Shown: positions 35,077 through 57,006 of the stretch, in pieces
Layout of the letters: every line of letters starts with the position of its first letter
Numbering within the stretch: position 1 is the stretch's first letter
The notes under the pieces: generated by a model
Seen by the model: only the letters and a program-made list of their open reading frames with translations
Database searches by the model: none
Told to the model about the DNA's origin: nothing
Made by a program: the position numbers and the translations under genes
NCBI GenBank assembly: GCA_964618725.1
Contig: CAZUBK010000002.1
Location: forward strand, 209,543 to 273,542
Length of the DNA stretch: 64,000 bases
Source of the DNA: an uncultured Pseudomonadales bacterium
GTDB lineage: Bacteria > Patescibacteriota > Microgenomatia > UBA1400 > Chazhemtobacteraceae
Direction: 5' to 3'

Positions 35077-35634
35077 CTAATCGATTCCGGGAGGGGTGGT
35101 AGTGAGTAGGTAGGGAGATAGGGTTTGAAATTCTTGGAGGGTAGTGGGAGTAAAGTACCAGATCTCGACGACTTTGCCAGAGACTTGATGTGTGCCCAGG
35201 GCAATGCCGTGACTTGGGAAGATGTAAACAGGATAATAGGGACCAAGGTAGTCGGTGTAAAGAGTCGCGGCTGGTCGACCTAGCTTGGGGGTAAGATCCC
35301 GAATATTGGTATCTTCTGTGAGTTTGGTTTTTTGGATAAGGAGAGTAACTTCGTTGTCGTCGACGATAGCAACATGGGGATCCTGGACATAATCTGAGGT
35401 GAACTGAAGGGAGGTTTTGCCATTGATTGTGTCTTGGGAAATGGGGTTGCCAAGAACGGCAATGAGATCGGCGGGAGTAGAGATATTGGGGCGGATGTTT
35501 TGATAGGTGAGAGTGGGTTGAGGAAGTGGGGTAAGGAGACGGAACATAATACCAATGACGATGAGAGTAATAAAAATGAGGGGAGTGTAGAATCTGGGGG
35601 AACGGGGATTGAGTTTGGATAAATTAAGTTTCAT
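35077..35634 (-). CDS. bitopic membrane protein, hypothetical (VirB8-like topology; speculative)
   Basis: One N-terminal TM, then ~150-aa extracytoplasmic domain. Start abuts the stop of the 978-aa gene. Confidence 0.45.
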   Translation of the reverse strand: MKLNLSKLNPRSPRFYTPLIFITLIVIGIMFRLLTPLPQPTLTYQNIRPNISTPADLIAVLGNPISQDTINGKTSLQFTSDYVQDPHVAIVDDNEVTLLIQKTKLTEDTNIRDLTPKLGRPAATLYTDYLGPYYPVYIFPSHGIALGTHQVSGKVVEIWYFTPTTLQEFQTLSPYLLTTTPPGID

Positions 35635-38571
35635 TTAGTTTCCTATTGTATATTTTCTAGCAAAACGCATGTGATTTGGATAAGAGGCAGAGACGTTGCA
35701 ATAACTGCCATAGTTGTCGCAGGCGACGAAGACACCAAAAGATTCAGCAAGGTCTTCGGCAATTGGGACGGCGGTAGGATTTTCGTCCCAAGGATAAGTG
35801 TTGAGTAAGCCTTCGCTGCCGATAATGAAAAGAAAGTCTTGGCGGAGCGGAGTGGAGCGATCGGCAAAGTGACCAAGCTCGTGAGCGAGGGTATAGCCGA
35901 CTTTCCAAGGGTCTAGACCAGAAAAGCAGTCATTGAAGTTGTTAAACCAGATGGCATTACCGGTGGCAATTCCGCAAAAATCGACATTGACAGGGTCGTA
36001 TCTTAGATTGATGGTGCCAGTTTTGCAGGCATTGTTCATGAGGATAGGATATCGGGAAGCGATAATAGTAGCAGCATCAGCGATAGCTTTTTGGTGTTCG
36101 GGGACTGGACCCCAGGTATTATCAAACTTAAGACAAGAGATGGTTGGTGGAGCAATGCCTCCACCTCCGGGATAGATACCAGTGCCCCCTGGGCCAACAC
36201 CGGACTCAAGTTGGACGAGGGTGGAAAGGAGGGGGGCAATGTTGATGGTGGGGATGTAGACGAAGAGATAGCCGGCGATGATAGCGGCAAAGATGATGGG
36301 AGCGAGGAAGACGATGGAGATGGAAGACATGATAACAAGAGGGAAGGAGGTAACGGCAACTAAAACAGCACCAGCCCCACCTGCGAGCATTTTCCAGTCG
36401 AAGTCCCAACCAAAGATATTGCGCCAGACGGACTTAAAGCTTTTCCAGAGAAAACCGATGGTTTTTTCAACAACGAAGCCAAGGACGGCACCGACAATGA
36501 TTCCGATAGGACCAGCAAGTGCACCAAGAGTTCCTCCGGCAGCGGCAGCGGCGGTGGTGGTAGCAGCTGTCGTGGCACCTTTGGCGACGAGTTGAGCGGC
36601 AACGGTTTTGAGGCCTTGTTTGATACCTTCTTTGGTGATAGTTTTGGTCGCTTGGCCAAGGAGTTTGACACTGACCTGTTTACTTAGAGATATACCTTGA
36701 ACAAAACCCTTAATGAAACCTCGACCTTCGGCTTGGCCGACTTGTTTCATGACCCAGTTGCCGACAGATTGAGTGGGATGGGAGACAAATCGAAAGGTGG
36801 ATCTTATTGGTTGAGGTAGGGATGAGGCAACCTTTGAGGTGGCAACTTGATATGAAGATGGTTTTTTGGGACGACTGATGTCATGATCGAGACTGGGGAC
36901 TCGGCCCTCGTTTTGGCGGATTTGAGATTGTTTGAGGACTGTTCTGTACAGGTGAAACTGTCGATTCTTGCCGTGTTGTTTTTTTAGCGAGGTAGAGGCT
37001 TTGGCTACATGTCTTGGGGTAATGCCAAGATTACTGAAGCCTATACTACCTGCTAGATGGGGTTCTCTAATGGTTCTAAAAAAAGCTTCTGCTTCAGTGG
37101 CCTTAGCAGTAGGAATGGAGTGAACTTCCGTAGGATTCTGTTTAATTGTGATTTCACGAGTTTCTTTTTGAAGAGAGGCAACGTCTTTGTTTATGTCGTC
37201 GATTACTCTGTTGGCTTCACCTGACTCGATAAGGCGAACAATGGCTTGTTGGTTTCCAGTATTGGTTTTCTCGATGTGTTCTTGGAGAGCGGATTGTTCT
37301 GGATAGGCCTTGTCGGCCTCATTGAGGAGAATACTGTTCTGAAATTTGGCCACTTCTTCGGTGGCTTTCTTAGTAGCTTTAGCAAAACTAATTATTTGTA
37401 GATCTTGATATTGAACAAGAGTGGCAGATTCTGGTTCGAGAAAACTTGTTTTACGAAAGGTGTCAATATCATCGATGGCGTTGATAACTCTGGGATCTGT
37501 GGGAAGAACTTGGGGAAGGTGAGATTGTATTTGTTGATCGAGCGTATATATTTCAGATTCAGGATCGAGACTGGCGGCTATAATGGCGGCATCTTCAGTG
37601 GATTCTATAATGTCGAGAGATGAAAGAAGGGAGAGCGTTTGGATGTTGGCGGTTGAATCAAGTCCTAGGGGGGTGAGGATTTCTTTGGCGAGTTCTGTAT
37701 TGAGAAACTCAGGATCAGTTCCAGGTTTGGTACTGCTGACAACGACCATGGCGAGTTCTTGTTGATGCTGGTCCAGTTCGGCACGTTTTTGTTTGAGAAG
37801 ATTTAGGGCAATTCTTTTTTGGACAAGTTTAAGAATTAATTTTTTTTGGCCATCAGTCTCAAACTTGATGCGGGTTTCTATTTCCTCATTGAGGGCTTGT
37901 GCTTCACTTAAAGCAGAGAGTTGTTGGGCCATTAGAGCTTGATCGACGGTGCCAGAGGTGGTTAGATCTTCATGGTCTTGTTCTCCTGTAGGTGTTTTCT
38001 CACCTCCTTGGGTTTCTTCTTCAAATGTTTCACCTACTTTCTCTTCTTCTTGCTTTGGGGGTTCTTCTTCGGTTTCTGTTTCATCAATACGGGCGACTAC
38101 GGTGTCAGATGGAGTAATGATCTTAGTGTCGTCGTAATAATCGATGCCAGTCTTAAGATTGCTAACTTTTATTGAGTCGCCTACCTGTTTTAGATTGGAG
38201 ACATCTCCGTTTACTAATGTGGGGAGTAATTGAGGATAGCCTTCAAGGGTTAGTTTTTCGAGATGTTGAATTACATCTTTGGAAGAGTCTTGACCAGATA
38301 GGTGAATGGGAATATTGGCCTTAATTTTTTCAAACGACATTTTGTAAAGGCGTCGGGCGAAGGATTTGACTGTATCATCACTCCATCCCTGTCCATGGGG
38401 ATCTTCACTTTTGGACAGTTCCATAACATAACTAAGGGCTTGATTGAATTTACTTTCACTTGGCCTTAAGTTGCTGATAGGAGCTTGGATATAGGAAGCA
38501 ATAACCTGAAGTGCACCCTGAATTCTTTGATCATATTCAGTAATACCTCTCTTTTTGGGATCGTAGGGCAT
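35635..38571 (-). CDS. large coiled-coil/membrane protein with C-terminal HExxH zinc-metallopeptidase-like domain
   Basis: Acidic coiled-coil N-terminal region. Two long hydrophobic segments (aa ~650-760). C-terminal GYTLAHELGHF motif. Lies 42 nt downstream of VirB4. Confidence 0.65.
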   Translation of the reverse strand: MPYDPKKRGITEYDQRIQGALQVIASYIQAPISNLRPSESKFNQALSYVMELSKSEDPHGQGWSDDTVKSFARRLYKMSFEKIKANIPIHLSGQDSSKDVIQHLEKLTLEGYPQLLPTLVNGDVSNLKQVGDSIKVSNLKTGIDYYDDTKIITPSDTVVARIDETETEEEPPKQEEEKVGETFEEETQGGEKTPTGEQDHEDLTTSGTVDQALMAQQLSALSEAQALNEEIETRIKFETDGQKKLILKLVQKRIALNLLKQKRAELDQHQQELAMVVVSSTKPGTDPEFLNTELAKEILTPLGLDSTANIQTLSLLSSLDIIESTEDAAIIAASLDPESEIYTLDQQIQSHLPQVLPTDPRVINAIDDIDTFRKTSFLEPESATLVQYQDLQIISFAKATKKATEEVAKFQNSILLNEADKAYPEQSALQEHIEKTNTGNQQAIVRLIESGEANRVIDDINKDVASLQKETREITIKQNPTEVHSIPTAKATEAEAFFRTIREPHLAGSIGFSNLGITPRHVAKASTSLKKQHGKNRQFHLYRTVLKQSQIRQNEGRVPSLDHDISRPKKPSSYQVATSKVASSLPQPIRSTFRFVSHPTQSVGNWVMKQVGQAEGRGFIKGFVQGISLSKQVSVKLLGQATKTITKEGIKQGLKTVAAQLVAKGATTAATTTAAAAAGGTLGALAGPIGIIVGAVLGFVVEKTIGFLWKSFKSVWRNIFGWDFDWKMLAGGAGAVLVAVTSFPLVIMSSISIVFLAPIIFAAIIAGYLFVYIPTINIAPLLSTLVQLESGVGPGGTGIYPGGGGIAPPTISCLKFDNTWGPVPEHQKAIADAATIIASRYPILMNNACKTGTINLRYDPVNVDFCGIATGNAIWFNNFNDCFSGLDPWKVGYTLAHELGHFADRSTPLRQDFLFIIGSEGLLNTYPWDENPTAVPIAEDLAESFGVFVACDNYGSYCNVSASYPNHMRFARKYTIGN

Positions 38572-38613
38572 GGCTATATTTTACAAGCTTGTGAGGAGAA
38601 AAACAGTTCATGA

Positions 38614-40476
38614 TTAAACTTGGCTTTGTTCGAGCTGTCTTTGTGCTTGCTGTTCTTCTTGGCGGGCGAGAATTTCGGAGGGTTTGGTAGTGACGAGGGC
38701 GTGTTCGTCGGGCGAGGCGACAACACGCAGAGCGACGTGGTTTTGGCCGGCAAAGAAGATGCCTTCACCAACATTGGCAGCGAGAAGGAGGTGGCGTTCA
38801 CCTTGGGAGAGATAGAAGGTTTCACCAACGGAGTCGATACCGGCAGGAGACTGTTTCATGAGGAACTGAAGGGCAGAGTTGGTGACGATAGCTTTGCCGT
38901 ATTGGGAATTTAAAAAGTCTTCGGCATTTTGAGAGATGATAGTAACGCCGAGGTAGTATTTGCGGGCGCGTTTGACGAAGCCCTGGAGGACTTTGGCAGA
39001 GTCTTCGTGGCGCATAAGGTACCAAGCTTCATCGACGACGAGGAGACGTTTTTTGAGTTGTTTACGGATCTTGGTCCAGATGAAGTCGAGAATCAGGAAC
39101 ATGACGATGGGGCGGATTTCGTCAGCGAGTTCGCGGAGGGTGAAGACGGTCATGGCGGAGTCGATCTCGACATTACTTTGTTGGTCGAAAATGCCTTTGA
39201 GGGCGCCCTTGACATATTTTTCGAGGCGGGCGGCGATGCCGGAGGCTTCAGGCTCTTCCATGCCAATGAGGGCTTTGTAGAGGTCTTCCATTCGGGGGGG
39301 TTCGAGGTGGTGAGTAGAGGGATCTTGGGTAATACCTTTTTGTTGGTAAGTGAGGACGAGGGCGCGATTTAGGATGGCGTCTTCATTGGGAGAGAGGGCA
39401 CCAAGCATGATCTTGAGAAGGGATTGGAGAAAGAGATATTTGTAGCTCATTTCATCGGCGGTGGAAGTCTTGGGATCAGGTAACTGAAAGGGGTTGATTT
39501 TGTGCTCTGAGGTGACGGAGAAGGCGATATAGTTGCCGCCGACGGCGCGACACATCATTTCGTATTCGTTTTCCGGGTCGATGATGATGGCTTCGGTGCC
39601 GAACATGACGGAGCGCATGAGTTCTAATTTAACGCTGTAACTTTTACCGCTACCGCTAGTAGCGAGGACGAGCATGTTGGCGTTCTCTAATGAAAAACGG
39701 TCAAAAATGACCAAAGATTCGTTATGCTCATTGATACCATATAGGATACCTTGGTTGTCGGTGAGTTCGGAAGAAGTGAAGGGGAAGGTCGTGGAGAGGG
39801 CGGTAGTATCCATATTTCTAATAATGAGGAGACGATCTTTACAGTAAGGAAGGGTACTTTTGAAGGCGTCTTCTTGAGAGAGAGAGGCGACTTTGCTGAC
39901 GATGATGAGGGAGGCAAGAAGACTTTGAACTTGGTTGGTGATGGTTTCAAGTTCTTTAGTGGTATCGGCGGAGATGGTGATGTAGAGGGAGAACTGAAAG
40001 AAGCGCTCAATCCCTTTAACGAGTTGCTCTTGGAGGACTTTGGCGTCTTCGAGCTGGGCTTGGGTGGCGGCTTGGGGGATGCGGCCGCGTTCGATATCGG
40101 CGCCAATTTCGGCTTCCATTTCGGCGATGCGACGACGGAGCTGTTCGAGTGTGCCTTTGACCTCGACGGGGTAGACGAACATGGAGATATCTATACTGTG
40201 GTCGAAGTTGATGAGAGGGGAGAGCCAATTGGCGGAGACGTAACGGGGGTAACCGGCGACAAAGAGGGTGCGGATATATGTATTACCGATCTTGAGGAAG
40301 CTGAAGTCGACTTCAATACTAGGTGGGGCGAGGATATCCTGGATGTTGACTTCACCGGTAATATTGAGGGTAAGATCGGAAGGGGAAGTGGAGAGAGTTT
40401 GGCCTTTAGGAGGATTGTTCAGGGGGGCTGAGGGAGTGGTGTTTGTTGATGGAGTTTTTTTGAGAAAGGGCAGCAT
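38614..40476 (-). CDS. VirB4/TrbE/PrgJ-family type IV secretion ATPase (ATPase portion)
   Basis: Walker A LATSGSGKS, Walker B LLVVDEAW. N-terminal YIRTLFVAGYPRYVSANWLSPLI block typical of VirB4. Confidence 0.8.
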   Translation of the reverse strand: MLPFLKKTPSTNTTPSAPLNNPPKGQTLSTSPSDLTLNITGEVNIQDILAPPSIEVDFSFLKIGNTYIRTLFVAGYPRYVSANWLSPLINFDHSIDISMFVYPVEVKGTLEQLRRRIAEMEAEIGADIERGRIPQAATQAQLEDAKVLQEQLVKGIERFFQFSLYITISADTTKELETITNQVQSLLASLIIVSKVASLSQEDAFKSTLPYCKDRLLIIRNMDTTALSTTFPFTSSELTDNQGILYGINEHNESLVIFDRFSLENANMLVLATSGSGKSYSVKLELMRSVMFGTEAIIIDPENEYEMMCRAVGGNYIAFSVTSEHKINPFQLPDPKTSTADEMSYKYLFLQSLLKIMLGALSPNEDAILNRALVLTYQQKGITQDPSTHHLEPPRMEDLYKALIGMEEPEASGIAARLEKYVKGALKGIFDQQSNVEIDSAMTVFTLRELADEIRPIVMFLILDFIWTKIRKQLKKRLLVVDEAWYLMRHEDSAKVLQGFVKRARKYYLGVTIISQNAEDFLNSQYGKAIVTNSALQFLMKQSPAGIDSVGETFYLSQGERHLLLAANVGEGIFFAGQNHVALRVVASPDEHALVTTKPSEILARQEEQQAQRQLEQSQV

Positions 40477-41352
40477 TTAGATTTGGTTAACACTAATTGG
40501 TTGTGTCGTTGTCGCCGAGGCCAAAGGTGGGGAAGTAGGAGTAGGCGATATCGTTTTCTGGGTGGAAGTCGTTTCGTCAGGGCTGCCTGGAGCCTTAAAG
40601 ACAATATTGGTAGGTTGAGGAGGGGGAGTGGATTCTCCTGGGAGGATTTTGGAGCTGATTTGAATTGGAGTAACGACTGGAGCGACTTGGACGGCAGTAG
40701 TTTCGAATTCTTTGGGATTGACCAGGAAGGGTGGAGTAACAACATCTGGGTTGTAGATACGATAGAAGAGAGTGAGGAGCTCTTGGGTAGTTAGTTGGCG
40801 GGTTTGGAGACCCAGACGGGCAAACTGACGAATGAGGTGGTCACGGCGGGGGTAGAGGGAGATCTTGGCTTTCTCGAGGATGTAGTTGTCTTCGAAAGTA
40901 GGCTTTTGGGGAGCAGGGGCGAGGGGGTTAAAGGATTTGACAGAGAGACCAAGTTCGATAGCAGTAAAGGGGACAATGACGTAGAACTTTTTTTCCATGA
41001 CTTTGTTTTCTTTGACGAGGCTTTTGATGTAGGTGCGATATTTGATGATCTGCTCTTTGATTTTTTGAGAGCGGATGGTTTCGAGTTGGGTGTCGAGGCG
41101 TTCGACGTAGTCACTTATATCTTTTCTGGTGGAGCGAAGAAGAACCTGGACGGTGAAGGAGAGTGAGTTGAGCAGGGCGGCGTAGCCGTAGATGGTGGCG
41201 TCTTGTTCTTCCTCGGAGAGGAGGCCGAAGTTGATAGCGGAGGTCTGGAGGACGATGGCGACGGAGCCGTCTTTGAGAATGACAAGATGATCTTTAATGG
41301 TATGGATGTCGAGATGGCTTTGGGTGGTTGCCTTGATGGCTTTATCGGACAT
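40477..41352 (-). CDS. VirB4 N-terminal domain-like protein (separated from ATPase ORF by one in-frame TAA)
   Basis: LKDGSVAIVLQTSAINFGLLSEEEQDATIYGYAALLNSLSFTVQVLLRSTR resembles the VirB4 N-terminus. Pro/Thr-rich C-terminal tail. Stop at 40477-40479 is immediately followed by the ATG of the next ORF. Confidence 0.6.
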   Translation of the reverse strand: MSDKAIKATTQSHLDIHTIKDHLVILKDGSVAIVLQTSAINFGLLSEEEQDATIYGYAALLNSLSFTVQVLLRSTRKDISDYVERLDTQLETIRSQKIKEQIIKYRTYIKSLVKENKVMEKKFYVIVPFTAIELGLSVKSFNPLAPAPQKPTFEDNYILEKAKISLYPRRDHLIRQFARLGLQTRQLTTQELLTLFYRIYNPDVVTPPFLVNPKEFETTAVQVAPVVTPIQISSKILPGESTPPPQPTNIVFKAPGSPDETTSTQKTISPTPTSPPLASATTTQPISVNQI

Positions 41353-41375
41353 GCTCTCAGTATACCTAAACAGGA

Positions 41376-41528: not shown

Positions 41529-41534
41529 TTTTTG

Positions 41535-42556: not shown

Positions 42557-43009
42557 TTAGTCGGTGAAGGATTTAAGAGAAGTATTTTTGAAGACGAGTT
42601 CAAAATCGGAGTCAAAGGTGACGAAATGTTTGATCTTGTGATGGCGGATGGTGAGGAGGTGATAGGCGTCACGGGGTGAGAGCTTGAATTTGTCCATAAG
42701 GAGGGGTATTTGGAGTTGGGATTTGATAGAGAAAGGGGGATTAACTATTTCGAGATATGGCAAAGAAAGGATCTTTTTTAGGTAGTTGTAAATACTTTTG
42801 TTTTGGATGTTTGTTTTTGTTTTGTGATAGTGGATTTTTCGAAGGGAATGCAAGAATTCATCAAGGCATAATGGTGATATACATAAAATCAAGTTTTGTG
42901 AAGCAAGTTTTGTAATGAGGGAAATGCTTTTTTGGTGGTTGAGAGAGTCTTCCTGAAGAAAGCTAACGAGAACGTTTGTATCAAGATAGCAGCTATTGAT
43001 AGATTTCAT
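42557..43009 (-). CDS. vapC: PIN-domain toxin VapC
   Basis: YLDTNVLV N-terminal acidic motif and FVTFDSDF C-terminal motif. Start ATG overlaps vapB by 17 nt. Confidence 0.7.
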   Translation of the reverse strand: MKSINSCYLDTNVLVSFLQEDSLNHQKSISLITKLASQNLILCISPLCLDEFLHSLRKIHYHKTKTNIQNKSIYNYLKKILSLPYLEIVNPPFSIKSQLQIPLLMDKFKLSPRDAYHLLTIRHHKIKHFVTFDSDFELVFKNTSLKSFTD

Positions 43010-43256
43010 ATGATTTATCAATAATCTGGTTAATTTCTTCTGGAGTGAAGTCTCTTCCACCTTTGAAGCCACCGGCGAGGCGTTTGACTAGTTCTTCAGG
43101 AGTTTCTTTGGATATCTTAGGTTCCTGAACGTGAAGAATTATTTGAGACCGTTTTGGTTCGAAGGTAAGTTTACTACCTAGGGGAATATTGAGATCCTTG
43201 GGGAGAATGGTGGCAGTACTTTTGTTTAGTTGGAAGACGGTTGAGGCAAAAGACAT
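42993..43256 (-). CDS. vapB: AbrB/MazE-type antitoxin VapB
   Basis: FQLNKSTATILPKDL SpoVT/AbrB-like N-terminus. 87 aa. Immediately upstream of the PIN toxin. Confidence 0.65.
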   Translation of the reverse strand: MSFASTVFQLNKSTATILPKDLNIPLGSKLTFEPKRSQIILHVQEPKISKETPEELVKRLAGGFKGGRDFTPEEINQIIDKSYEIYQ

Positions 43257-43479: not shown

Positions 43480-46065
43480 ATGGATGAATCAATGAAAGAA
43501 AGAGCTGAGAGAATGGCTGAAAAACCGGAGGACAAAAAGTTTGAGCCCGATTTTGATAGGGCAGGAAAGATTTTGAAAGAAGATGTTGAGAAAGTTCATA
43601 GATTTGTAAGGAAAGCTGGCGATCATATAGTGTATGACGCTGATGGCAATGTGGTTCTTGATGAAAGGAAAGTTAAGGACTTGAGTAAATTGCAGGAACA
43701 AATTGATAAGTTGGTCAAAGTTATGGGAAAGGATCCTGTAACTGATGATGATCAGTTCGAGATTGACTCTAATGCACGAATTGACCAGATAGAGATGAAC
43801 GTTTTGAGACACCTACTTCCTAGAACAAGGTTGATAAAAGTTGCTAATTTGCAGAATAATCCTACTGGTGCAGAAGGAGAACAGGAAGAACTGAGGAGAT
43901 TGAGGGGAGAAGCTCATGTTTTGTTTTTGGAATTTGTGAGAGAGCAGGTGGAAAGAGATAAATATTATCAAGATTTGGTTGCTGGGGATTGGGTTAAGGG
44001 GATTAATGTACCAGAATATAATCAGACAGGAGAGGCTGTTGTGGAACCTGCAACCGCATCGATGTACGCCGCCGCCAGAGGTACCAGAGATTATGTTGGT
44101 CGTCAGGAACCGCCTGCTGGAGGGGGGGGTGGGGAACCACCGAGAGGAGGAGAGGAACCACCAGAGCCGCCACGAGGGAGGGGGGGGCCGCCGCGGGATG
44201 GAGGAACACCAACACCTGAAGAAGGCGAACGGAAGAAAGATCTTGTTTGGGGAGAGAGGGAATGTCCGAATTGTGGAAATGTTGTGACTGCTTTTTCTTC
44301 GAGGTGTTTCTTTTGTAATCGAGATGTAGAAGATGATATAGAAGAAATGAAGAAGGTTAAAAGCCCAAAAGATGCATTTACCTTTAAACAAATTTTTGGC
44401 AGAACAAGGATGGGCAGATATTCGAATGATATTGTAGAAATTGATGGAGAACTCTGTTCTATGTCTTCTTTGGCGATGGAGGTGGAGAATCTTTTGAATT
44501 ATGGATCTAACCCAACTTTTGTGGAAGACAGGATGAGAGATATTTACAAAAAGGCAGATCGTCTGAGAATATTAAATCCTTTGGACAAAAAGGACTATCT
44601 ACTAACTATTAGTAAGATTTGGGAAGCTTCGAAATTAATGAAGTTGGATGAGCAAGGAAAAGCTTCTAGGAGTGAGGCCAGACCTGAAACAGAAGAGGGA
44701 GAGAAAAAAGACAAGAAGTCAGAAGTGACAGAGCTGTCTTCAAATAAAGAGGAGTTGTTCTTGAGAGTGAGAGAAATAGTAAGGGAAGAGTTAAAGAAGA
44801 GGCCCGGTAATGTTGTGGATGTGGCTACCCTACTCAGTCCGTTCGGATTGGCGCTTGGATTACAGCAATATCGGATACCAGAAGGGATGACCGGCTATGT
44901 GGAAGTGAAAGATGCGATAGAAAGGGAAATTGAACTTAGAGTAAGACTTCATAATGCGATGTTGGCAAAAAGTGGTGCTGGTTTGTCGGGAAGGGCTGAT
45001 TCATGGAAAGCAATGAGAGATACGGAGAGATGGAAGAAGACTACCCTGAGAGCTGATGAAACAGGAGATGACTATTTGACAATAGCGACTTTGGAGTCAG
45101 CGGGAGGATTTTCGGTTGGGCTTATGGATAGATCAATACAGTGGTTATATTCGCAGATGGGTGAAGGTAGTCCTTACATAAAATTAGGTGAAAAGGGGGA
45201 GAGGGAAGTACAGATGAAGGAAATAAAAAGAGCAATGCTTTCTGCTTTGGGAGGCGATGAAGTGAAAAATGATGCTTTGGAGTTGGCTTGGCAATTCTGG
45301 GAGATTCATGAAGGATTTTCTCGAGCGGATACTAATAACCCACTTAATCCGCTGGTTCAATTTAAAGAGAGATCTAGATATATGATATTACCCCGTTTCT
45401 TGAAAGATAAAGGGCGCATGGGTTTTGTGACTAATCCTAAGGGTGATGATATTCAAGCGCTTGGGAAAGATGGCTTTGCAATGATTTCTACTGGAGGTGT
45501 GCCGACTCACACCTTGTTGGAAAGTGGTCAATTGTTTGCATCGATTGCTAACTATGGAGTGAATGGTTCGTCTTATGAAAAGATGGTTTCTGGTGTGATT
45601 GCTGGCAGAGAGGTCTATGATTTGTTCAACAAGATGCCGGCGGTAGCTGCTGGTGAACTAATGAAAGAAAGTTTTTGGATTGATGTTAATCCTAAATTTG
45701 GGGCGTTGTTAAAGGCAGGAATAATGAGTAAAGAAGAGCTTGAGACAACAAAGCGGTTGTATTTTAAGTCTTTGTTATGGATGCGTTCCCCAAGAAATGA
45801 AGTGGCAAAACAAGGAAGGGATTACCATTCCCCAGAAGAGATTAGGAGAGCATATCATGCGGCTATTCGGTTGGGTTATCTGAGTCAGGAAAGTGATATC
45901 AGAGAACTTAGGGACTTTGCGAAATCAATCTGGGAGATGATAATCCCGGTGTACGGCGTATCTGAGAGTGAAGCTCAACGGACTATTGCTAGTAGAGAAG
46001 GAGGGCTATCTTGGAGATTGTTTGGGAAAAGAGGTTTTGATTACGAGGGGCCAAGTGCCCAGTAG
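43480..46065 (+). CDS. large cytoplasmic hypothetical protein with zinc-ribbon (CPNCG...CFFCN) and Gly/Pro-rich segment
   Basis: 861 aa, no TM. Cys4 ribbon. Two G8 homopolymer tracts lie in the coding region. Confidence 0.6.
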   Translation: MDESMKERAERMAEKPEDKKFEPDFDRAGKILKEDVEKVHRFVRKAGDHIVYDADGNVVLDERKVKDLSKLQEQIDKLVKVMGKDPVTDDDQFEIDSNARIDQIEMNVLRHLLPRTRLIKVANLQNNPTGAEGEQEELRRLRGEAHVLFLEFVREQVERDKYYQDLVAGDWVKGINVPEYNQTGEAVVEPATASMYAAARGTRDYVGRQEPPAGGGGGEPPRGGEEPPEPPRGRGGPPRDGGTPTPEEGERKKDLVWGERECPNCGNVVTAFSSRCFFCNRDVEDDIEEMKKVKSPKDAFTFKQIFGRTRMGRYSNDIVEIDGELCSMSSLAMEVENLLNYGSNPTFVEDRMRDIYKKADRLRILNPLDKKDYLLTISKIWEASKLMKLDEQGKASRSEARPETEEGEKKDKKSEVTELSSNKEELFLRVREIVREELKKRPGNVVDVATLLSPFGLALGLQQYRIPEGMTGYVEVKDAIEREIELRVRLHNAMLAKSGAGLSGRADSWKAMRDTERWKKTTLRADETGDDYLTIATLESAGGFSVGLMDRSIQWLYSQMGEGSPYIKLGEKGEREVQMKEIKRAMLSALGGDEVKNDALELAWQFWEIHEGFSRADTNNPLNPLVQFKERSRYMILPRFLKDKGRMGFVTNPKGDDIQALGKDGFAMISTGGVPTHTLLESGQLFASIANYGVNGSSYEKMVSGVIAGREVYDLFNKMPAVAAGELMKESFWIDVNPKFGALLKAGIMSKEELETTKRLYFKSLLWMRSPRNEVAKQGRDYHSPEEIRRAYHAAIRLGYLSQESDIRELRDFAKSIWEMIIPVYGVSESEAQRTIASREGGLSWRLFGKRGFDYEGPSAQ
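44122..44129. repeat. G8 homopolymer tract inside 861-aa gene
   Basis: gggggggg directly visible. A second G8 at 44180-44187. Confidence 0.8.
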
Positions 46066-51858: not shown

Positions 51859-51902
51859 ACTTTCTAAGTATAGCTTGTGAGCGTGGTTGATGGGATGGCG
51901 AT

Positions 51903-52229
51903 TTAGGGAATCTGAAATTGAAGTTCGGTAACAGGGGCGCCGGTGAAGGTTTGAATGAGGAGGAGGATGAGCCAGGCGAGACCGAGGCCAATAACGCCGA
52001 CGATGGCAAAGAGCAGAGTCTGCATGCCGGCTTGATATTCTTTGGGGTTATCGGCGCCCATGACAATTTTGGCACCGGCGAAGATGATCATGCCGATGGC
52101 GGCAATGATGATGACGGGGGTAATAATGCCAAGGAGATTGGCAATGACGCATTTAATGCCGCCAAGGGTGGCGACTTCGATACCGGCTTGGACGGTGGCA
52201 CATTGTGGGTCAGCTAGCCAATCAAACAT
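51903..52229 (-). CDS. VirB2/TrbC-pilin-like small membrane protein, paralog 1 (no signal peptide)
   Basis: Two hydrophobic helices separated by a short polar loop (GADNPKEYQAGMQT). Confidence 0.55.
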   Translation of the reverse strand: MFDWLADPQCATVQAGIEVATLGGIKCVIANLLGIITPVIIIAAIGMIIFAGAKIVMGADNPKEYQAGMQTLLFAIVGVIGLGLAWLILLLIQTFTGAPVTELQFQIP

Positions 52230-52245
52230 AGATTTTAGTCAGAAA

Positions 52246-52629
52246 CTAGAAAGGTCTTAGCTCTTGAATGGACTTAGTTGCGTCAAAGATATCGACACCG
52301 AAGAAGGCACCGATAATTCTGATGAGAGCCCAAGAAGCAGCGACAATGGCGAGACCGATGACGGCGCTAGTGATTCTCTGCTGAGCCTTTTCAGTTTTGG
52401 TTTTGTCACCACCGGAGGTTATCCACTCGACACCCCCCCAGACGAGGTAGAGAAAGACGAGGATACCGGAGATGATAAGGGCGACAGAGGCGAGAGAAGA
52501 GACTAATTTACCAAGATCGGTAATCTGGATTTGTTCTGGTTGCTCGATGCCAATGGTTTGAGCAAAGGCGGGAGTCGCGAGAGCAAGAGAAGATAAAAGA
52601 GTTGAAGTAACAGTGAGCGCTTTTTTCAT
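52246..52629 (-). CDS. VirB2/TrbC-pilin-like small membrane protein, paralog 2
   Basis: Signal peptide ending AFA-Q. Family motif WGGVEWITSGGDKTKTEKAQQRITSAVIGLAIV. Confidence 0.6.
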   Translation of the reverse strand: MKKALTVTSTLLSSLALATPAFAQTIGIEQPEQIQITDLGKLVSSLASVALIISGILVFLYLVWGGVEWITSGGDKTKTEKAQQRITSAVIGLAIVAASWALIRIIGAFFGVDIFDATKSIQELRPF

Positions 52630-52704
52630 GTTTGGTTTAGATTGCTAATTAATATGATTATTCCCTAAATGCTAATACTATGTCAATGGGGTCAGACAAG
52701 CGTG

Positions 52705-53028
52705 TTAACTAATGGGGAGAGCTTCTTCTAGGCCGAAGTAAGTGCGGACGATTAACCAGATTGCCCAGGAGGCGGCAACAATAGCGAGACCGATGACGGA
52801 GGCAGTAATGCGCTTCTGGGCGTTTTCGACGTGGGCCTTTTCTCCGCCTGAGGTAATCCACTCAATCCCCCCCCAGACGAGGTAGAGGAAGACGAGGATA
52901 CCGGAGATGACGAGGGCCACATCGACGAGACTTTTGACGAGGGGGCCAATTTCGGTAAAGCCAAAGAAGCTTTCGGCTTCGGATCTAATGTCTGTTTGCA
53001 TAAAAGTTATTATGGCGTAAATGTCCAA
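52705..53028 (-). CDS. VirB2/TrbC-pilin-like small membrane protein, paralog 3
   Basis: WGGIEWITSGGEKAHVENAQKRITASVIGLAIV. Alternative start at 53001. C8 tract at 52867-52874. Confidence 0.55.
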   Translation of the reverse strand: MDIYAIITFMQTDIRSEAESFFGFTEIGPLVKSLVDVALVISGILVFLYLVWGGIEWITSGGEKAHVENAQKRITASVIGLAIVAASWAIWLIVRTYFGLEEALPIS

Positions 53029-53348
53029 TCAATATTAAGGATATCTATCTTGAGGACTTCGGAAATAAAGGCAATGATGGCGTAGGAAGCGACGAGGACG
53101 GTGAGGCCAATGAGGGCATTGCTGATTTTTTTCTGGGAGGCTTCGACTTTGGTTTTGTCACCGCCACCAGTAATCCATTCAATGCCGCCCCAAATGAGGT
53201 AGAGGAGGAAGGTAAGGGCGCCGACGACGACGAGAGTTTTCCAAAGCTGGGCGATATAGAAGGCAAGGCCGGAACCGGCTTCACCGGGAGTAGTGAATTG
53301 AGAAAGGGCAGGATTGGTGATTTGGGCGTAGACGGGCTTGATAAACAT
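53010..53348 (-). CDS. VirB2/TrbC-pilin-like small membrane protein, paralog 4
   Basis: Start at internal ATG (MFIKPVYAQ...), 5 nt after the upstream stop. WGGIEWITGGGDKTKVEASQKKISNALIGLTVL. Confidence 0.55.
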   Translation of the reverse strand: MFIKPVYAQITNPALSQFTTPGEAGSGLAFYIAQLWKTLVVVGALTFLLYLIWGGIEWITGGGDKTKVEASQKKISNALIGLTVLVASYAIIAFISEVLKIDILNIDWTFTP

Positions 53349-53353
53349 GAGTT

Positions 53354-53704
53354 TTAGAGAAAATCGGCAGGACTTAGTAAAGGAACGTCGAGAATGGTGG
53401 CAACAATACCGGCAATGAAATAGGAGACGATGACGGCGATGAGGCCAATGGCGGCATTGGTCATTTGTTTTTGGGCGGTTTCGACTTTGCCTTTTTCTCC
53501 TCCGGAAGTAATCCAAGTGAGGGCACCGGTAAGAAAATAGAAGAGGAAGGCAATTCCGGCGGCGGCGGTGATGGCACCAACAATGACGCTAGCAAAGAGT
53601 TGGAAGTCGGTAACGGGAGTTGCGGAAACTATTTGGAATTTACCCACCCCACCAATGGGGCCAAGGGGGATAGTAGCGGCGTAAGCAGAAGGAATGATGG
53701 ACAT
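53354..53704 (-). CDS. VirB2/TrbC-pilin-like small membrane protein, paralog 5
   Basis: LTWITSGGEKGKVETAQKQMTNAAIGLIAV. Confidence 0.55.
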   Translation of the reverse strand: MSIIPSAYAATIPLGPIGGVGKFQIVSATPVTDFQLFASVIVGAITAAAGIAFLFYFLTGALTWITSGGEKGKVETAQKQMTNAAIGLIAVIVSYFIAGIVATILDVPLLSPADFL

Positions 53705-53716
53705 ATTTATATTGTA

Positions 53717-54115
53717 CTATAGCGTTTCGATGTTGGGACTCAAAATAAAAGTGGCGTCGCCAAAGAAAAGATAACCGATGATGCCGGCAATAATGAAGGA
53801 GACAGTGATGATGCCAAGACCGATGACTGTGTGCATGAATTTCTGGTTAGCCTCAGCAATTTTTTTGGCGTCACCGGCGGCGGTGATGTAGCCAAGACCG
53901 CCAAAGAGGAACTGAAAAAGAGACCAGACGCCGGCGATGGCAATGAGAAGGCGGATGACGTTGGTGAAGAACTTAGAACCGATATCAGCGGTATTAACAA
54001 TTACATTGGTAGGTGGATTGAGGACGCCGATTGGGTTGGGGGCAGCTAAGGCAGTTAGGGGCAAGAAAAAAAGAAGGAATAATAAAGAGGTGGAGATAAA
54101 GGTTGTTTTTTTCAT
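53717..54115 (-). CDS. VirB2/TrbC-pilin-like small membrane protein, paralog 6
   Basis: Start at MKKTTF (ATG 54113-54115) with Sec signal peptide. GGLGYITAAGDAKKIAEANQKFMHTVIGLGII. Confidence 0.55.
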   Translation of the reverse strand: MKKTTFISTSLLFLLFFLPLTALAAPNPIGVLNPPTNVIVNTADIGSKFFTNVIRLLIAIAGVWSLFQFLFGGLGYITAAGDAKKIAEANQKFMHTVIGLGIITVSFIIAGIIGYLFFGDATFILSPNIETL

Positions 54116-54119
54116 TTGA

Positions 54120-54476
54120 TTAGAATAGCCCACCACCGCCTACCTGGAAAAGGATACGGGTAATCCAGAAGGCAAGGACGGAAAGACCTAAGCCTATTAA
54201 AGCATAGTTTAGTGTATTAGCAGCATTTTGGGTCTCTTTGGCGTTGCCAGCAGAAGCAACAAAGCGGAAACCAGCTAGGAGGGCAACAAAAAAAGCAGCG
54301 ATGCCAGTGAAGACGGGGATGTTACTGATGATGGGTTGGAGGAAACCGGCCAAAGTGATAGTTGATCCAAGGAGACTGGCGGGGGTGAAGTATTGATTAA
54401 GATTCTGAGCATAAGCGGGAGAGATGAGAAAGAGTAAGGAGATAAAAGTAAAGATAATAGAGAGAAGTAGCTTCAT
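54120..54476 (-). CDS. VirB2/TrbC-pilin-like small membrane protein, paralog 7
   Basis: Start at MKLLLS (ATG 54474-54476), signal peptide ending AYA-Q. FVASAGNAKETQNAANTLNYALIGLGL. Confidence 0.55.
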   Translation of the reverse strand: MKLLLSIIFTFISLLFLISPAYAQNLNQYFTPASLLGSTITLAGFLQPIISNIPVFTGIAAFFVALLAGFRFVASAGNAKETQNAANTLNYALIGLGLSVLAFWITRILFQVGGGGLF

Positions 54477-54483
54477 AAGTATT

Positions 54484-54807
54484 TTAGAAAGGGGCGGTAG
54501 CGCCGAGGCCAATAATTGTTAGAACGAGGCGAATGATGACGAAGCTAGTGAAAGTGATGACTAGGCCAATAAGGCTGGTGATGATGCGGGAAGTGATTTT
54601 GCTGATTTTGTCGGGGCTACCCTCGGCGAAGACGTAGCCGATGGCGGCGAGGCTCAAATTGGCAAAGAAGGCAAGACCAACAAAAAAGAAGGCAAGGTTG
54701 ACAATGCTGAATGGGCCACGAGTTAGAAGGTCAGAGATATTGGAGCCAACGGGAAAGCTTGAGTTGGCGGGATTGGTGATATTCTGGATGACTTCTGATG
54801 CTTTCAT
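54484..54807 (-). CDS. VirB2/TrbC-pilin-like small membrane protein, paralog 8 (no signal peptide)
   Basis: YVFAEGSPDKISKITSRIITSLIGLVI. Two hydrophobic helices. Confidence 0.5.
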   Translation of the reverse strand: MKASEVIQNITNPANSSFPVGSNISDLLTRGPFSIVNLAFFFVGLAFFANLSLAAIGYVFAEGSPDKISKITSRIITSLIGLVITFTSFVIIRLVLTIIGLGATAPF

Positions 54808-54813
54808 TTGTGT

Positions 54814-55212
54814 TTAGAATCCGGGGATGTTGAGAATCTGGACGCCGAGGAGGTTAAGGAGGACGACGGACATGATTATAAATAATAGACCAGAAATAGC
54901 GGCAGTAATAGTCTGTTGAGCAGCTTTGATCTTGTCGGGCATGCCAGCGGAGGTAGTGAGGACATAAAAGCCATAGAGAATAAGGAGGAGGGCGATGCCG
55001 CCACCAATGCCCAGACTAAGGGTGAGGACATTACTGACAAAGTCTTGTCCACCATTGTCGACACTAATACAGCCAAGGGCAGTATTGATAGTATTAGTGT
55101 TGCCATTACAGACTATTTCTGTAGTTTCACCAACGGCATGCACAAAAGAAGCTTGTGAAAGGAAAGCTATAGAGGAGAGAAAAAAGGTGGTGGGTCGGAT
55201 GATACGCGGCAT
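54814..55212 (-). CDS. VirB2/TrbC-pilin-like small membrane protein, paralog 9
   Basis: Signal peptide ending VHA-V. Two Cys in the mature N-terminus. TTSAGMPDKIKAAQQTITAAISGLLFI. Confidence 0.55.
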   Translation of the reverse strand: MPRIIRPTTFFLSSIAFLSQASFVHAVGETTEIVCNGNTNTINTALGCISVDNGGQDFVSNVLTLSLGIGGGIALLLILYGFYVLTTSAGMPDKIKAAQQTITAAISGLLFIIMSVVLLNLLGVQILNIPGF

Positions 55213-55257
55213 AAGTTAATTATACCTTGAATATAGACGTGGAGGTAATTAGGTAGA

Positions 55258-57006
55258 ATGGGCAGTGATATGAAGAAATGCTTGTTGGTGTTACTATCTG
55301 TTTTGGTGATCGGCTTGAGTTTGCCGGTTGCGGCAGCAGAGGACTGTATGGCTGATCCAAATGACTGGCCGCTGGACAAATTAGAGAGGTGTACTAAAGA
55401 GTTGGAGCACTTAAATGCGCTGTCAAAAGCGGCAACGGCACCCTTGGAGGCTGAGGTGAAGAGATTGGATGCTCAGATCAAGTCAATTCAAAGTCAGATA
55501 AAGCGAGCAGAAGTAAGAGAAAAAGATTTGGAGAAATCAATTGAGGAGAGGGAAAGTGAGTTGGCTGACCAATATGTTTTGTTGGCGAGAAAGATGAGGG
55601 AACACTATAAAAAGGTAAGATCTGGATCAACTTTGGCGTTGATATTATCGAAGACTGGGACAGGGGAGATATCGAGGGAACTTCAGTATCAAGAGGAAGC
55701 GGCGGAGCAAGACAGAACACTGATTTTGGGTTTGGCGGAGGAAATAGTGGGGTTGGAGAAAGATAAAAAGACTTCGGAGGAAAATAGGGTACGGTTGGCT
55801 ACTTTACAAATAAGTATTGATAAGCAGGCAGAGTTCTTTGAGAAAGAGATAGCCAATGCAAAGAATTATCAGTCAAGTTTGACTGGAAAGATCGCTGTTT
55901 TATCAGCAATACAGGAGAGCATTTTGTCGGGCAAGGGGGAGACTTTCCAGACGACGGTGGGTGATGTGCCACTGGTTGGAGATCCGAATTCATTGCCTAA
56001 TTACAATCCAGGATTCTCGCCGGCATTTGCGGCCTTTTCTTTTGGGGCACCACACTTTAAGGGGATGAGTCAATATGGCGCGTTTGGGAGGGCAAAGGCG
56101 GGGCAGGGTGTGGAAGATATTTTGCGAGCATATTACGGAGGAGGGATCGAGATCAAAAAGGACTATTCAACGGGAATAAACATAACCGTTCGGGGGTATG
56201 GGACAGTAGACATTGAAACATATACAAAGCGGATTTATGAGATGCCGGGTGAATGGGGAGACCAAGGAGGGATGGAGGCATTGAAGGCGCAGGCGGTGGC
56301 GGCGAGGTCATATGCCTTGGCGTATACAGATAATGGATCAGGTTCCATTTGTGCGACGGAGGCGTGTCAGGTGTATAAAGGAAATAACAAGGGAGGTAAG
56401 TGGGAAGAGGCGGTGAATGCGACGAGGGGGTGGGTGATGATAGCCAACGGGAAGCCATTGAGCGCTTGGTACGCATCAACATCGGGTGGGTATCAAGAAT
56501 CGTATACGAGTAACGGATATGCAACACCGGGATTTTGGGATGCAGACGGAGGTAGAGGTGGTTGGACGTCAAACGCCTGGGAAAACAAAGCAGGGAGTCC
56601 TTGGTTCTACAAGGGATGGTACAAGGATCGAAGTGGGGTGAGCTGTGGACGGAGTCATCCTTGGCTGACGAGTGAAGAGATGGCTGATGTCTTAAATGCC
56701 TATGTAGTATTGTTTCAGGGGGGTGGGGATAGTAGTCGAGTGGTACCGGTTGATTTATCGTCTTGTTGGGGAAAGGGTGGAAATCCATATTCATTATCGG
56801 AGTTACGTGAGATTGGGGGGTATACGAGTGTGAGTGGAATAAAACAGGTTGATTACAGTAGTAATGGGTTTACGGAGCGGGTGATATTACAGACGAACAA
56901 AGGAGAGGTCTCGATTTCAGGGGATCAATTTAAAAAGTCGTTTAATTTACGGGCGCCGGGAAGAATTGCTTTGAAGTCGGGATTGTTCAATATAGAGAGG
57001 AAGTGA
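55258..57006 (+). CDS. SpoIID/LytB-domain peptidoglycan hydrolase with N-terminal coiled-coil (EnvC-like) region
   Basis: Signal peptide. ~200-aa coiled coil. C-terminal GMSQYGAFGRAKAG...LSAWYASTSGGY SpoIID/LytB-like block. Transcribed divergently from the pilin-like array. Confidence 0.7.
   Translation: MGSDMKKCLLVLLSVLVIGLSLPVAAAEDCMADPNDWPLDKLERCTKELEHLNALSKAATAPLEAEVKRLDAQIKSIQSQIKRAEVREKDLEKSIEERESELADQYVLLARKMREHYKKVRSGSTLALILSKTGTGEISRELQYQEEAAEQDRTLILGLAEEIVGLEKDKKTSEENRVRLATLQISIDKQAEFFEKEIANAKNYQSSLTGKIAVLSAIQESILSGKGETFQTTVGDVPLVGDPNSLPNYNPGFSPAFAAFSFGAPHFKGMSQYGAFGRAKAGQGVEDILRAYYGGGIEIKKDYSTGINITVRGYGTVDIETYTKRIYEMPGEWGDQGGMEALKAQAVAARSYALAYTDNGSGSICATEACQVYKGNNKGGKWEEAVNATRGWVMIANGKPLSAWYASTSGGYQESYTSNGYATPGFWDADGGRGGWTSNAWENKAGSPWFYKGWYKDRSGVSCGRSHPWLTSEEMADVLNAYVVLFQGGGDSSRVVPVDLSSCWGKGGNPYSLSELREIGGYTSVSGIKQVDYSSNGFTERVILQTNKGEVSISGDQFKKSFNLRAPGRIALKSGLFNIERK

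Follow-up and report, generated by a model that had tools for sequence, protein, structure and literature searches.

The 64-kb window analyzed here, which is the whole stretch of 64,000 nucleotides of contig CAZUBK010000002.1, carries between positions 35077 and 57006 a locus that resembles a type IV secretion system (T4SS). All open reading frames (ORFs) that an earlier note on this DNA had named are present in this range, and they are arranged in two runs of minus-strand genes with one plus-strand gene between them (Table 1). The first run (run A, from 43072 down to 35077) encodes, in this order, a PIN-domain protein of 171 amino acids (aa), a PrgI-like protein of 319 aa, a 291-aa protein, an ATPase of 620 aa, and proteins of 978 and 185 aa, and the start of the 185-aa gene abuts the stop codon of the 978-aa gene. 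The second run (run B, from 55212 down to 46104) consists of nine small ORFs, followed by the genes for a 1337-aa protein and a polytopic protein of 567 aa. The locus begins immediately after dnaN, as the earlier note had stated, and the stop codons of dnaN (plus strand) and of the 185-aa gene (minus strand) are separated by only 1 bp (35075-35079), which leaves no room for terminators. On the basis of the comparisons described below, the locus is very probably a complete copy of the chromosomal and vertically inherited T4SS of Patescibacteria, which derives from monoderm (MPF-FATA) conjugation machinery supplemented with VirB2-type pilins. The DNA comes from a member of the Microgenomates that is close to Collierbacteria.

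Table 1. Position and supporting evidence of the features of the T4SS-like locus and of related or adjoining genes in the 64-kb window.
Feature	Position	Strand	Evidence
VirB4 ATPase body, 620 aa	38614..40476	-	Pfam, NCBIfam and PDB matches
TrsD/TraC-like protein, detached N-terminal VirB4 module, 291 aa	40477..41352	-	PF26593, NF045971, Foldseek
PrgI/VirB3-like protein, 319 aa	41535..42494	-	PF12666, transmembrane (TM) hairpin
Predicted VirB6-class polytopic membrane protein, 567 aa	46104..47807	-	Fold only
Array of nine predicted VirB2/TrbC-type pilin genes	51903..55212	-	PF18895, phmmer
Pilin genes 1-5	51903-52229, 52246-52629, 52705-53028, 53010-53348, 53354-53704	-	
Pilin genes 6-9	53717-54136, 54120-54512, 54484-54807, 54814-55212	-	
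Secreted Cys-rich protein, 1337 aa	47845..51858	-	N-terminal hydrophobic segment, Cys count
Membrane protein with HELGH, 978 aa, directly 3' of VirB4	35635..38571	-	Ribosomal_TL5_C, TM cluster
Single-pass membrane protein, 185 aa, final gene of the VirB4 operon	35077..35634	-	TM segment 13-39
SpoIID/LytB-family peptidoglycan hydrolase, 582 aa	55258..57006	+	PF08486, TIGR02669
PIN-domain (VapC-like) gene 5' of PrgI	42557..43072	-	PF01850 (4.3e-15)
Cytoplasmic protein, 861 aa, on the opposite strand, divides the locus into two operons	43480..46065	+	No family match
VirD4/type IV coupling protein (T4CP)-like ATPase with S1 and NUDIX, 1077 aa, beyond the 35077-57006 range	7686..10919	-	DUF87, S1, NUDIX
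dnaA, converges on run A	32287-33654		
dnaN, converges on run A	33978-35075	+	

The 620-aa protein is a VirB4-family ATPase that matched the Pfam families P-loop_TraG (E = 3.7e-27) and AAA_10 (2.3e-13), Thermoanaerobacter VirB4 in the PDB (4ag5; 2.2e-46), and the NCBIfam model for VirB4-like conjugal transfer ATPases NF045971 (conju_CD1110; 1.8e-109, 367 bits at a cut-off of 325). Its residues 42-583 aligned to positions 184-734 of the 752 positions of the latter profile, and the protein comprises the C-terminal part of the VirB4 N-domain and the RecA-like ATPase domain. The Walker A (ATSGSGKS, residues 272-279) and Walker B (LLVVDE, residues 478-483) motif residues are invariant in an alignment of its relatives. 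More than 8000 homologs were detected, the best 120 of which are 69-87% identical, and those that carry a name belong to Collierbacteria, Woesebacteria, Microgenomates or Patescibacteria. With these closest relatives and an NF045971 score above the cut-off, the protein is predicted to be a member of the Patescibacteria clade of VirB4.

The gene directly upstream supplies the N-terminal part of the same ATPase. The 291-aa ORF ends in a TAA codon that is directly followed, in the same frame, by the ATG of the VirB4 gene. Its product has a precomputed annotation as TraC-like (PF26593), has 2805 detected homologs with a usual length of 210-235 aa, and is cytoplasmic, with a Pro/Thr/Ser-rich disordered tail beyond approximately residue 205. 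The protein matched the N-terminal positions (the first ~130) of full-length VirB4 profiles, including NF045971 and two further VirB4 models; residues 20-136 correspond to positions 12-128 of NF045971 and residues 7-128 to positions 101-234 of NF045975, and a match to the TrsD model NF041427 (2.4e-6) stayed below the cut-off of that model. Moreover, the nine best Foldseek matches in the PDB for its AlphaFold model (pLDDT 70.7) were R388 TrwK/VirB4 chains. Among related loci, TrsD and VirB4 are encoded by one ORF in L040 (789 aa, 9350-11719) and L013 (814 aa, 390-2834), and both fused ORFs align to full-length VirB4 profiles as a single stretch. Because a single profile of 752 positions is covered by the 291-aa protein at positions 12-128 and by the 620-aa protein at positions 184-734, and because fused forms exist, the two proteins are, judging from profile and fold, a split full-length VirB4 in the evolutionary sense. 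The split VirB4 proposed in the earlier note is thus supported by complementary profile positions, by the fused ORFs of two lineages and by the TrwK fold matches, and the two polypeptides jointly contain the complete N-domain and the ATPase domain with Walker A and B motifs that characterize the VirB4 family.

The two-gene form is common, as TrsD was found directly 5' of VirB4 in 66 of 82 related loci, with two separate genes in 64 of these 66. A broken or pseudogenised VirB4 is ruled out by this distribution, by the ATG that directly follows the TAA, and by the intactness of both ORFs. Programmed read-through between the two genes can also be dismissed, since TrsD and VirB4 share their frame in 16 of the 66 loci, which is below the chance expectation of one third, so that the same-frame arrangement is not enriched and read-through is not indicated; L016 has, as in the window, both genes in the same frame with an in-frame stop between them. 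Likewise, the 291-aa protein is not a duplicate of the N-domain part that is kept in the 620-aa protein, because hhalign detected no match between the two and the 291-aa protein fits a more N-terminal part of the profile. Quinonero-Coronel et al. (2025, Microb Genom, PMC12102498), a paper cited here and below from excerpts of its text, refer to the upstream half of VirB4 as TrsD, and the excerpts mention no TrsD-VirB4 fusion. The recognition of TrsD and the short VirB4 as a split full-length VirB4 that is fused in two lineages is one modest addition made by this locus.

Upstream of the split VirB4, the 319-aa protein matched PF12666 (PrgI) above the threshold (3.2e-8, 34.4 bits at a cut-off of 27), and it contains two TM helices (28-72) that form the expected hairpin, followed by a linker rich in Pro and then by a C-terminal domain conserved among relatives, in agreement with its earlier assignment as PrgI/VirB3. 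The 567-aa protein has a signal peptide, ~170 aa that form an outside domain, and five or more TM helices between residues 192 and 486, and it has 316 homologs, every one of which is unannotated. Sequence and profile searches of the PDB with this protein, as well as with the 291-aa, 185-aa, 978-aa and 1337-aa proteins, returned nothing meaningful. An AlphaFold2 model of the 567-aa protein built from the alignment of homologs had a mean pLDDT of 72.5, with values of 80-94 in the membrane core. The nine best Foldseek matches of this model in the PDB were chains of R388 TrwJ/TrwI (VirB5/VirB6) stalk entries (E values of 8e-3 to 0.28, probability up to 1.0), and its best structural matches were the VirB6-class proteins TrwI and DotA. 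The predicted fold, the topology and the position in the locus support the assignment of the 567-aa protein as a VirB6-class channel protein, and the VirB6-like role that had been suggested earlier is therefore borne out by the fold matches to TrwI and DotA, not by sequence. In the excerpts of PMC12102498, VirB6 homologs are described as 'scarce' in Microgenomatia and extreme divergence is suspected; the family of the 567-aa protein is a good candidate for the missing Microgenomatia VirB6. A candidate VirB6 family of 316 unannotated homologs at the level of the fold, in a group in which searches with hidden Markov models found VirB6 scarce, would be a second modest addition. With the PrgI-like protein and the predicted VirB6-class protein, both the VirB3/PrgI and the VirB6 membrane components are represented near virB4. 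Profile and fold comparisons thus agree with the earlier assignments, with VirB4 and PrgI above the model cut-offs and the 291-aa and 567-aa proteins recovered by profile or Foldseek searches. Finally, the 185-aa single-pass protein, which matched no family and no PDB entry, has weakly similar homologs in L021 and L050, encoded at the corresponding place, and its position makes it a candidate for a VirB8-like component.

All nine small ORFs of run B matched PF18895 (T4SS_pilin), with E values ranging from 1e-9 to 0.011. They share a layout of a signal peptide, a first TM segment, a short loop with the pattern ITSGGxK..AQ and a second TM segment, i.e., a hairpin of two hydrophobic segments, and an all-against-all phmmer comparison linked the nine proteins into one connected network. 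These findings uphold the earlier description of nine tandem VirB2/TrbC-like small proteins, and the ORFs are predicted to encode divergent paralogous VirB2-type pilins that make up an array of the kind defined by PF18895/PF04956. The ORF taken as 168 aa is over-extended, and its likely start yields a protein of 112 aa (53010-53348). Similar pilin arrays of 3-10 genes were found near VirB4 in 22 related loci.

When GTDB was scanned with one genome for each species, 80 loci were obtained, all from Patescibacteria-type metagenome-assembled genomes (MAGs) of Microgenomates lineages, WWE3, Gracilibacteria/Peregrinibacteria and Saccharibacteria, with VirB4 proteins that are 46-74% identical to that of the window. 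Among the loci with VirB4 at least 52% identical, TrsD was adjacent in 41 of the 42 assessable loci and PrgI equally in 41 of 42, while dnaN was located within 10 kb in 30 of 33, at a distance of 14-8304 bp (median 3.6 kb); of 19 loci from more distant classes, 7 have dnaN nearby. The neighbourhood is therefore conserved in relatives. The dnaN gene is convergent with the T4SS operon in all 46 related loci that contain it, and the order PrgI, TrsD, VirB4, convergent dnaN-dnaA recurs in Microgenomates, WWE3 and Saccharibacteria. In the closest relative (L083), VirB4 is 87% identical. Moreover, the conservation of VirB4 (mean 57%) exceeds that of DnaA (39%) and DnaN (36%) in all 37 of 37 loci, its identity co-varies with that of DnaA and DnaN (r = 0.67-0.70), and the locus has the same third-position GC skew as its surroundings in the window. 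No Pfam match to a relaxase, integrase, VirB5, VirB7-11 or TrbL was obtained in any sizeable ORF of the 64-kb window, and no transposase was found among its scanned ORFs, in line with the earlier statement that relaxase, integrase and VirB7/9/10 are absent. The fixed synteny at the dnaN side, the conservation of VirB4 above that of DnaA and DnaN, and the lack of a relaxase and integrase together establish that this is a vertically inherited core system, and not a mobile element. The remainder of the window consists of housekeeping genes, including those for GroEL, YidC, Jag, the RNase P protein, LeuRS, TsaD, bL25, SmpB, transfer-messenger RNA (tmRNA) and a ComF-like protein. An Rfam scan of the window detected only the tmRNA and one tRNA, and nothing inside the locus; a promoter and terminator scan gave no excess over the shuffled expectation and is hence uninformative.

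The system to which this locus belongs has been described between 2023 and 2025. According to the excerpts of PMC12102498, Patescibacteria possess a monophyletic VirB4 clade related to MPF-FATA, in which VirB4 is accompanied by TrsD, VirB3, VirB6 and VirB2 arrays of 2-11 genes; pilin arrays are especially abundant in Microgenomatia, relaxases are almost absent, T4CP genes are seldom adjacent, and dnaA and dnaN are abundant near virB4 in Microgenomatia and Paceibacteria. The window shares with this published system the Patescibacteria-group VirB4 with TrsD beside it, the PrgI/VirB3 protein, a VirB6-type protein, the tandem array of divergent VirB2-like pilins (nine in this case), the absence of a relaxase, a non-adjacent T4CP, and the chromosomal dnaN/dnaA location as reported for Microgenomatia, and there is no essential difference from it. 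The earlier opinion that this combination is not a described canonical architecture can therefore not be maintained, as the excerpted text of 2025 already describes essentially the same one. The locus is a typical member of this known system and adds only details: compared with the excerpts, VirB6 is recognised here by fold only, a HELGH protein takes the place of M23 or lysozyme 3' of VirB4, and a divergent SpoIID gene is present at the end of the array. Transposon sequencing in Southlakia epibionticum (Wang et al. 2023) showed that epibiotic growth requires T4SS genes and the pilin array, a review of 2025 proposed a pilus conduit for uptake or signalling, and tubular structures at a parasite-host interface were read as possible T4SS pili in a preprint; the link with the epibiotic lifestyle of Patescibacteria made in the earlier note is thus the accepted reading in the literature. 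The T4SS is one of the few molecular handles on these ultra-small, biosynthetically poor bacteria that live off other bacteria. In the sole genetically tractable species it is essential, and as a monoderm-type T4SS with VirB2 pilins it is unusual; the present locus leaves this picture unchanged.

With other T4SSs, namely those of the MPF-FATA type (pGO1 Trs, pCF10 Prg, CTn2 CD1110 type), the locus shares a VirB4 above the CD1110 cut-off, a PrgI-type VirB3, a separate TrsD-type N-module as in pGO1, the lack of outer-membrane core proteins, and a candidate membrane-anchored wall hydrolase after VirB4. In contrast to MPF-FATA systems, it has no relaxase, adjacent coupling protein, recognisable VirB8-like protein (PrgL/TraM) or PrgB-type adhesin, it contains VirB2-type pilins, which Gram-positive systems lack, and it is chromosomal and vertically inherited. 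The VirB2, VirB3, VirB4 and VirB6 functions of MPF-T systems (Agrobacterium VirB, R388 Trw) are represented, and the models of the 291-aa and 567-aa proteins had TrwK (VirB4) and TrwI (VirB6) as best matches among solved structures, whereas VirB5, VirB7, VirB9, VirB10 and VirB11 were not found by Pfam in the scanned ORFs of the window, VirB4 is encoded by two genes, nine pilin paralogs replace a single one, and the envelope is of the monoderm type. Finally, the locus resembles the Ced and ComB systems in that it lacks a relaxase, derives from a T4SS, combines an ATPase of the VirB4 family with VirB2-like filament proteins and a VirB6-like channel, and has a proposed role in uptake. It differs from them by a VirB4 that scores 55 bits against CedB (NF041017, cut-off 700), by the absence of detectable CedA or ComB-specific components, and by uptake being a hypothesis in this case.

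A working model can be drawn from this inventory. VirB4 is made as two polypeptides, the TrsD-like N-module and the 620-aa body, and the ATPase, presumably as hexamers, would be held at the membrane by PrgI/VirB3 together with the VirB6-class channel, by analogy with R388 and Gram-positive systems. VirB4 would then power the removal from the membrane of the nine pilin paralogs, which are exported by Sec, and their assembly into a polymeric tube or pilus. Outward hydrolase domains may open the cell wall, namely the HELGH domain of the 978-aa protein (M23 in Collierbacteria) and possibly SpoIID, and the 1337-aa Cys-rich secreted protein may, more speculatively, act as adhesin or tip factor. Instead of conjugation, the machine would mediate an exchange that depends on contact with a host bacterium, with uptake of host macromolecules as the favoured direction, and a role in host-dependent growth via a pilus conduit can be inferred from Saccharibacteria genetics and from microscopy reports.

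The window contains one T4CP-like gene, which lies 25 kb from the T4SS locus and is possibly a distal coupling protein, to judge from its domains. Its 1077-aa product matched DUF87 (2.8e-8), S1 (2.5e-19, residues 760-830), NUDIX (9e-6, residues 893-1020), TrwB_AAD_bind (1.6e-4) and NF045973 (conju_CD1115; 6.3e-9), and no N-terminal TM segment is visible on reading the sequence. The ATPase family of this protein comprises 5920 cluster representatives at E<1e-30; among representatives of clusters at 50% identity, S1 fusions are present in P0365, P0404, P0414 and P0441, and NUDIX in P0366. In the closest relative L083, an 806-aa T4CP-like ATPase (DUF8128; 11874-14294, plus strand) that is 33% identical to the 1077-aa protein (2e-100) is encoded directly 3' of VirB4, which is the only one of 83 loci in which a T4CP-like gene adjoins VirB4. 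A limited literature search found no paper that pairs VirD4 with an S1 domain in Patescibacteria.

Several explanations other than a chromosomal, vertically inherited T4SS that acts on a host have been considered. It is extremely unlikely that the locus is an integrated conjugative element or a decayed remnant of one: VirB4 is a member of CD1110, a family of ATPases of conjugative transposons, PrgI and TrsD are components of the conjugation type, and the locus has a PIN toxin gene embedded in it, but relaxase, integrase and repeats are lacking, all ORFs are intact, the chromosomal place beside dnaN is fixed across several classes, VirB4 is conserved beyond DnaA and DnaN with co-varying identities, and in composition and third-position GC skew the locus is like the remainder of the window. 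A conjugative MPF-FATA system would come with a cognate relaxase and coupling protein, and no relaxase is present in the 64 kb; the earlier rejection of a conjugative element therefore stands, on account of the missing relaxase and integrase, the conserved position and a VirB4 that tracks DnaA and DnaN. Export of proteins (effectors, toxins or lytic enzymes) into or onto the host, with the 1337-, 978- and 861-aa proteins as cargo or accessories, would agree with the absence of a relaxase, a reasoning shared by the earlier note, and with the occurrence of fast-evolving large proteins at conserved positions, a pattern typical of host-interaction factors. However, a Sec signal or TM segments are present in the 1337-aa and 978-aa proteins themselves, whose export thus does not require a T4SS, no effector domain or T4SS secretion signal could be recognised, and there is no adjacent coupling protein. 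This explanation is unlikely.

A device for the import of nucleic acids, similar to archaeal Ced or Helicobacter ComB, that feeds a nucleotide-auxotrophic cell and in which the distal S1-NUDIX ATPase handles RNA or DNA, is a possible though rather improbable alternative. The presence of a T4CP-like ATPase with S1 and NUDIX domains in the same window, the recurrence of S1 fusions in four other cluster representatives and of NUDIX in one, the T4CP-like homolog directly after VirB4 in L083, and the weak similarity of VirB4 to CedB (5e-15) point in this direction, as do a preprint on a Patescibacteria parasite that feeds on host RNA and has possible T4SS pili, and the excerpts of PMC12102498, in which import of DNA or other macromolecules is proposed. 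However, the T4CP-like gene adjoins VirB4 in a single locus, the T4CP homolog is not essential in S. epibionticum according to the same excerpts, the CedB score is far below its cut-off, S1 and NUDIX domains are common, and the 1077-aa protein may serve an RNA turnover unrelated to the T4SS. In the more specific form of this proposal, the T4SS and the distal S1-NUDIX VirD4-like ATPase would constitute a machine for the import of host RNA or nucleic acids in general. Host RNA that enters through the channel would be gripped and processed by the coupling protein on the cytoplasmic side. This combination appears very unlikely; if true, it would show by which molecular route Patescibacteria could feed on host RNA, a lifestyle that was recently proposed for them.

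The assignment of the locus as a complete Patescibacteria T4SS has to be weighed against several findings. Three of the nine pilins score above the PF18895 gathering cut-off of 26.6 bits and six remain below it. The 567-aa protein gave no Pfam, NCBIfam, PHROG or PDB sequence match, even when used as a 50-sequence profile, and its assignment as VirB6 depends on a model of medium confidence (pLDDT 72.5) with weak Foldseek E values (8e-3 at best). No VirB8-like protein (PrgL/TraM/TcpC) was detected in the locus by Pfam, NCBIfam or PDB sequence searches, and there is no coupling protein inside 35077-57006. The sole family support for the C-terminus of the 978-aa protein is a match to Peptidase_M43 with an E value of 0.068, and the SpoIID gene, which heads a block with the bPH-domain, 615-aa and smpB genes, may be a housekeeping gene. 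Moreover, the function of the system is deduced wholly from homology and from experiments in another class, the Saccharimonadia.

The position of the locus next to the replication origin, which the earlier note had assumed, is doubtful. The gene order jag-yidC-rnpA followed by dnaA-dnaN is that of a classic oriC neighbourhood, and four near-consensus DnaA boxes flank dnaA; over the whole window DnaA boxes are not enriched (18 versus 14.8 expected). The plus-strand GC skew amounts to +0.31 over the whole window (1-64000), the third-codon-position skew is ~+0.59 for genes in either orientation, and ~70% of the coding bases are located on the C-rich strand. This strong skew does not change sign at dnaA and keeps a single sign over at least 35 kb to its left and 30 kb to its right; there is no change of sign within 2.8 kb past the left edge of the window either (L164 7000-9546). 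Close relatives, namely the Collierbacteria-type loci L001, L003, L006, L011 and L013, likewise show no flip within 3-7 kb past dnaA, whereas the skew flips at dnaA in most other Microgenomates loci. If the skew reports the direction of replication, dnaA does not mark the origin in this clade; the origin may lie away from dnaA, or replication may proceed in one direction only. The absence of a flip would then weaken, for this genome, both the adjacency to the origin and the published gene-dosage argument. The locus thereby adds the caution that proximity to dnaA may not mean proximity to the origin in this clade. With an origin at dnaA, the T4SS operon, which converges on dnaN, would run head-on to replication.

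The remaining genes of the locus are more variable. The 978-aa protein consists of a long cytoplasmic N-terminal part, a TM cluster (675-782), and an outside domain that contains all six Cys residues and the HELGH motif at residue 897. Residues 81-189 (38005-38331) form a bL25/Ctc-C-like domain (Ribosomal_TL5_C, 2.2e-8, 34.8 bits at a cut-off of 27; NF004133 in NCBIfam, 5.6e-11); a genuine bL25 gene is located elsewhere in the window, at 23225-23890. PHROGs gave only a weak tape-measure-like match, to low-complexity or coiled-coil sequence, for this protein. Residues 595-790 are 27% identical (3e-13) to the TM region of an 843-aa protein encoded at the same position in Collierbacteria, which ends in Peptidase_M23. 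As the membrane-proximal parts are homologous and the C-terminal domains differ (HELGH versus M23), the two proteins seem to share a conserved anchor on which different wall-active heads can be exchanged, which fits the peptidase and lysozyme genes reported 3' of virB4 in the excerpts of PMC12102498, and the 978-aa protein is a candidate wall-remodelling, VirB1-like component. The protein is not conserved in the closest relative L083, which has unrelated genes instead. Of the HExxH metallopeptidase-membrane protein proposed earlier, the HELGH motif and the TM cluster could be verified, but the match to a metallopeptidase family could not, and with a gene that is replaced even in the closest relative the protein can hardly count as an established component.

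The 1337-aa protein agrees with its earlier description as Cys-rich and secreted, since it has an N-terminal hydrophobic segment (1-21) as signal and 42 Cys residues, 22 of which occur within the first 300 residues. Neither the whole protein nor its segments matched Pfam, NCBIfam, PHROG or PDB entries. Weak positional homologs (24-35% identity) were found in two VirB4 loci and approximately 10 SpoIID loci, so the protein evolves fast while its position between the pilins and the VirB6-like gene is retained, and it may, speculatively, be regarded as a candidate adhesin or pilus-tip factor. The PIN-domain gene had no match in 82 related loci and is probably not part of the system; an ORF of 87 aa overlaps it upstream (42557-43256, minus strand), and the two may be a VapBC-like pair. 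The fast-evolving 861-aa protein matched no family and nothing in the 82 loci, and it is similar (22% identity, 6e-6) only to the product of a 940-aa opposite-strand gene at the same position in L083; its membership in the system is doubtful. Collierbacteria opposite-strand genes were considered as counterparts and rejected, because they share no similarity with it.

The SpoIID/LytB hydrolase noticed earlier is indeed present, as the 582-aa protein matched PF08486 (1.5e-16) and exceeded the TIGR02669 cut-off (104.9 bits versus 83.3). Its gene diverges from the first pilin gene over a 45-bp spacer. This junction was examined in 80 metagenome loci (L084-L163), in which a minus-strand pilin gene was found less than 600 bp 5' of the SpoIID homolog in 40 of 58 assessable cases, with arrays upstream in nearly all, and a more distant MAG (L027) has ten pilin genes followed by SpoIID in the same junction. 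The junction between pilin array and SpoIID is thus conserved, as is the order 3' of SpoIID, where a bPH-domain protein gene, a 615-aa gene, smpB and tmRNA recur in dozens of metagenome contigs. The conserved junction suggests a candidate for the missing VirB1 function, which would be a further modest addition; as SpoIID heads a housekeeping block, a role as VirB1 substitute is no more than plausible and membership in the system is uncertain. SpoIID can therefore not be taken as an established component: its adjacency to the array is conserved, yet it heads that block.

Further downstream, the 615-aa protein (57928-59775) is Gly/Glu-rich, matched no family and has an unusually high skew of +0.61. 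The tmRNA gene (60605-61007, plus strand) encodes a long predicted tag peptide, AEDKILSAGDFSPLYEEEVAPSYAYAYAA, and a ComF-like gene (60956-61678), which combines a phosphoribosyltransferase with a double zinc ribbon, overlaps or follows it.

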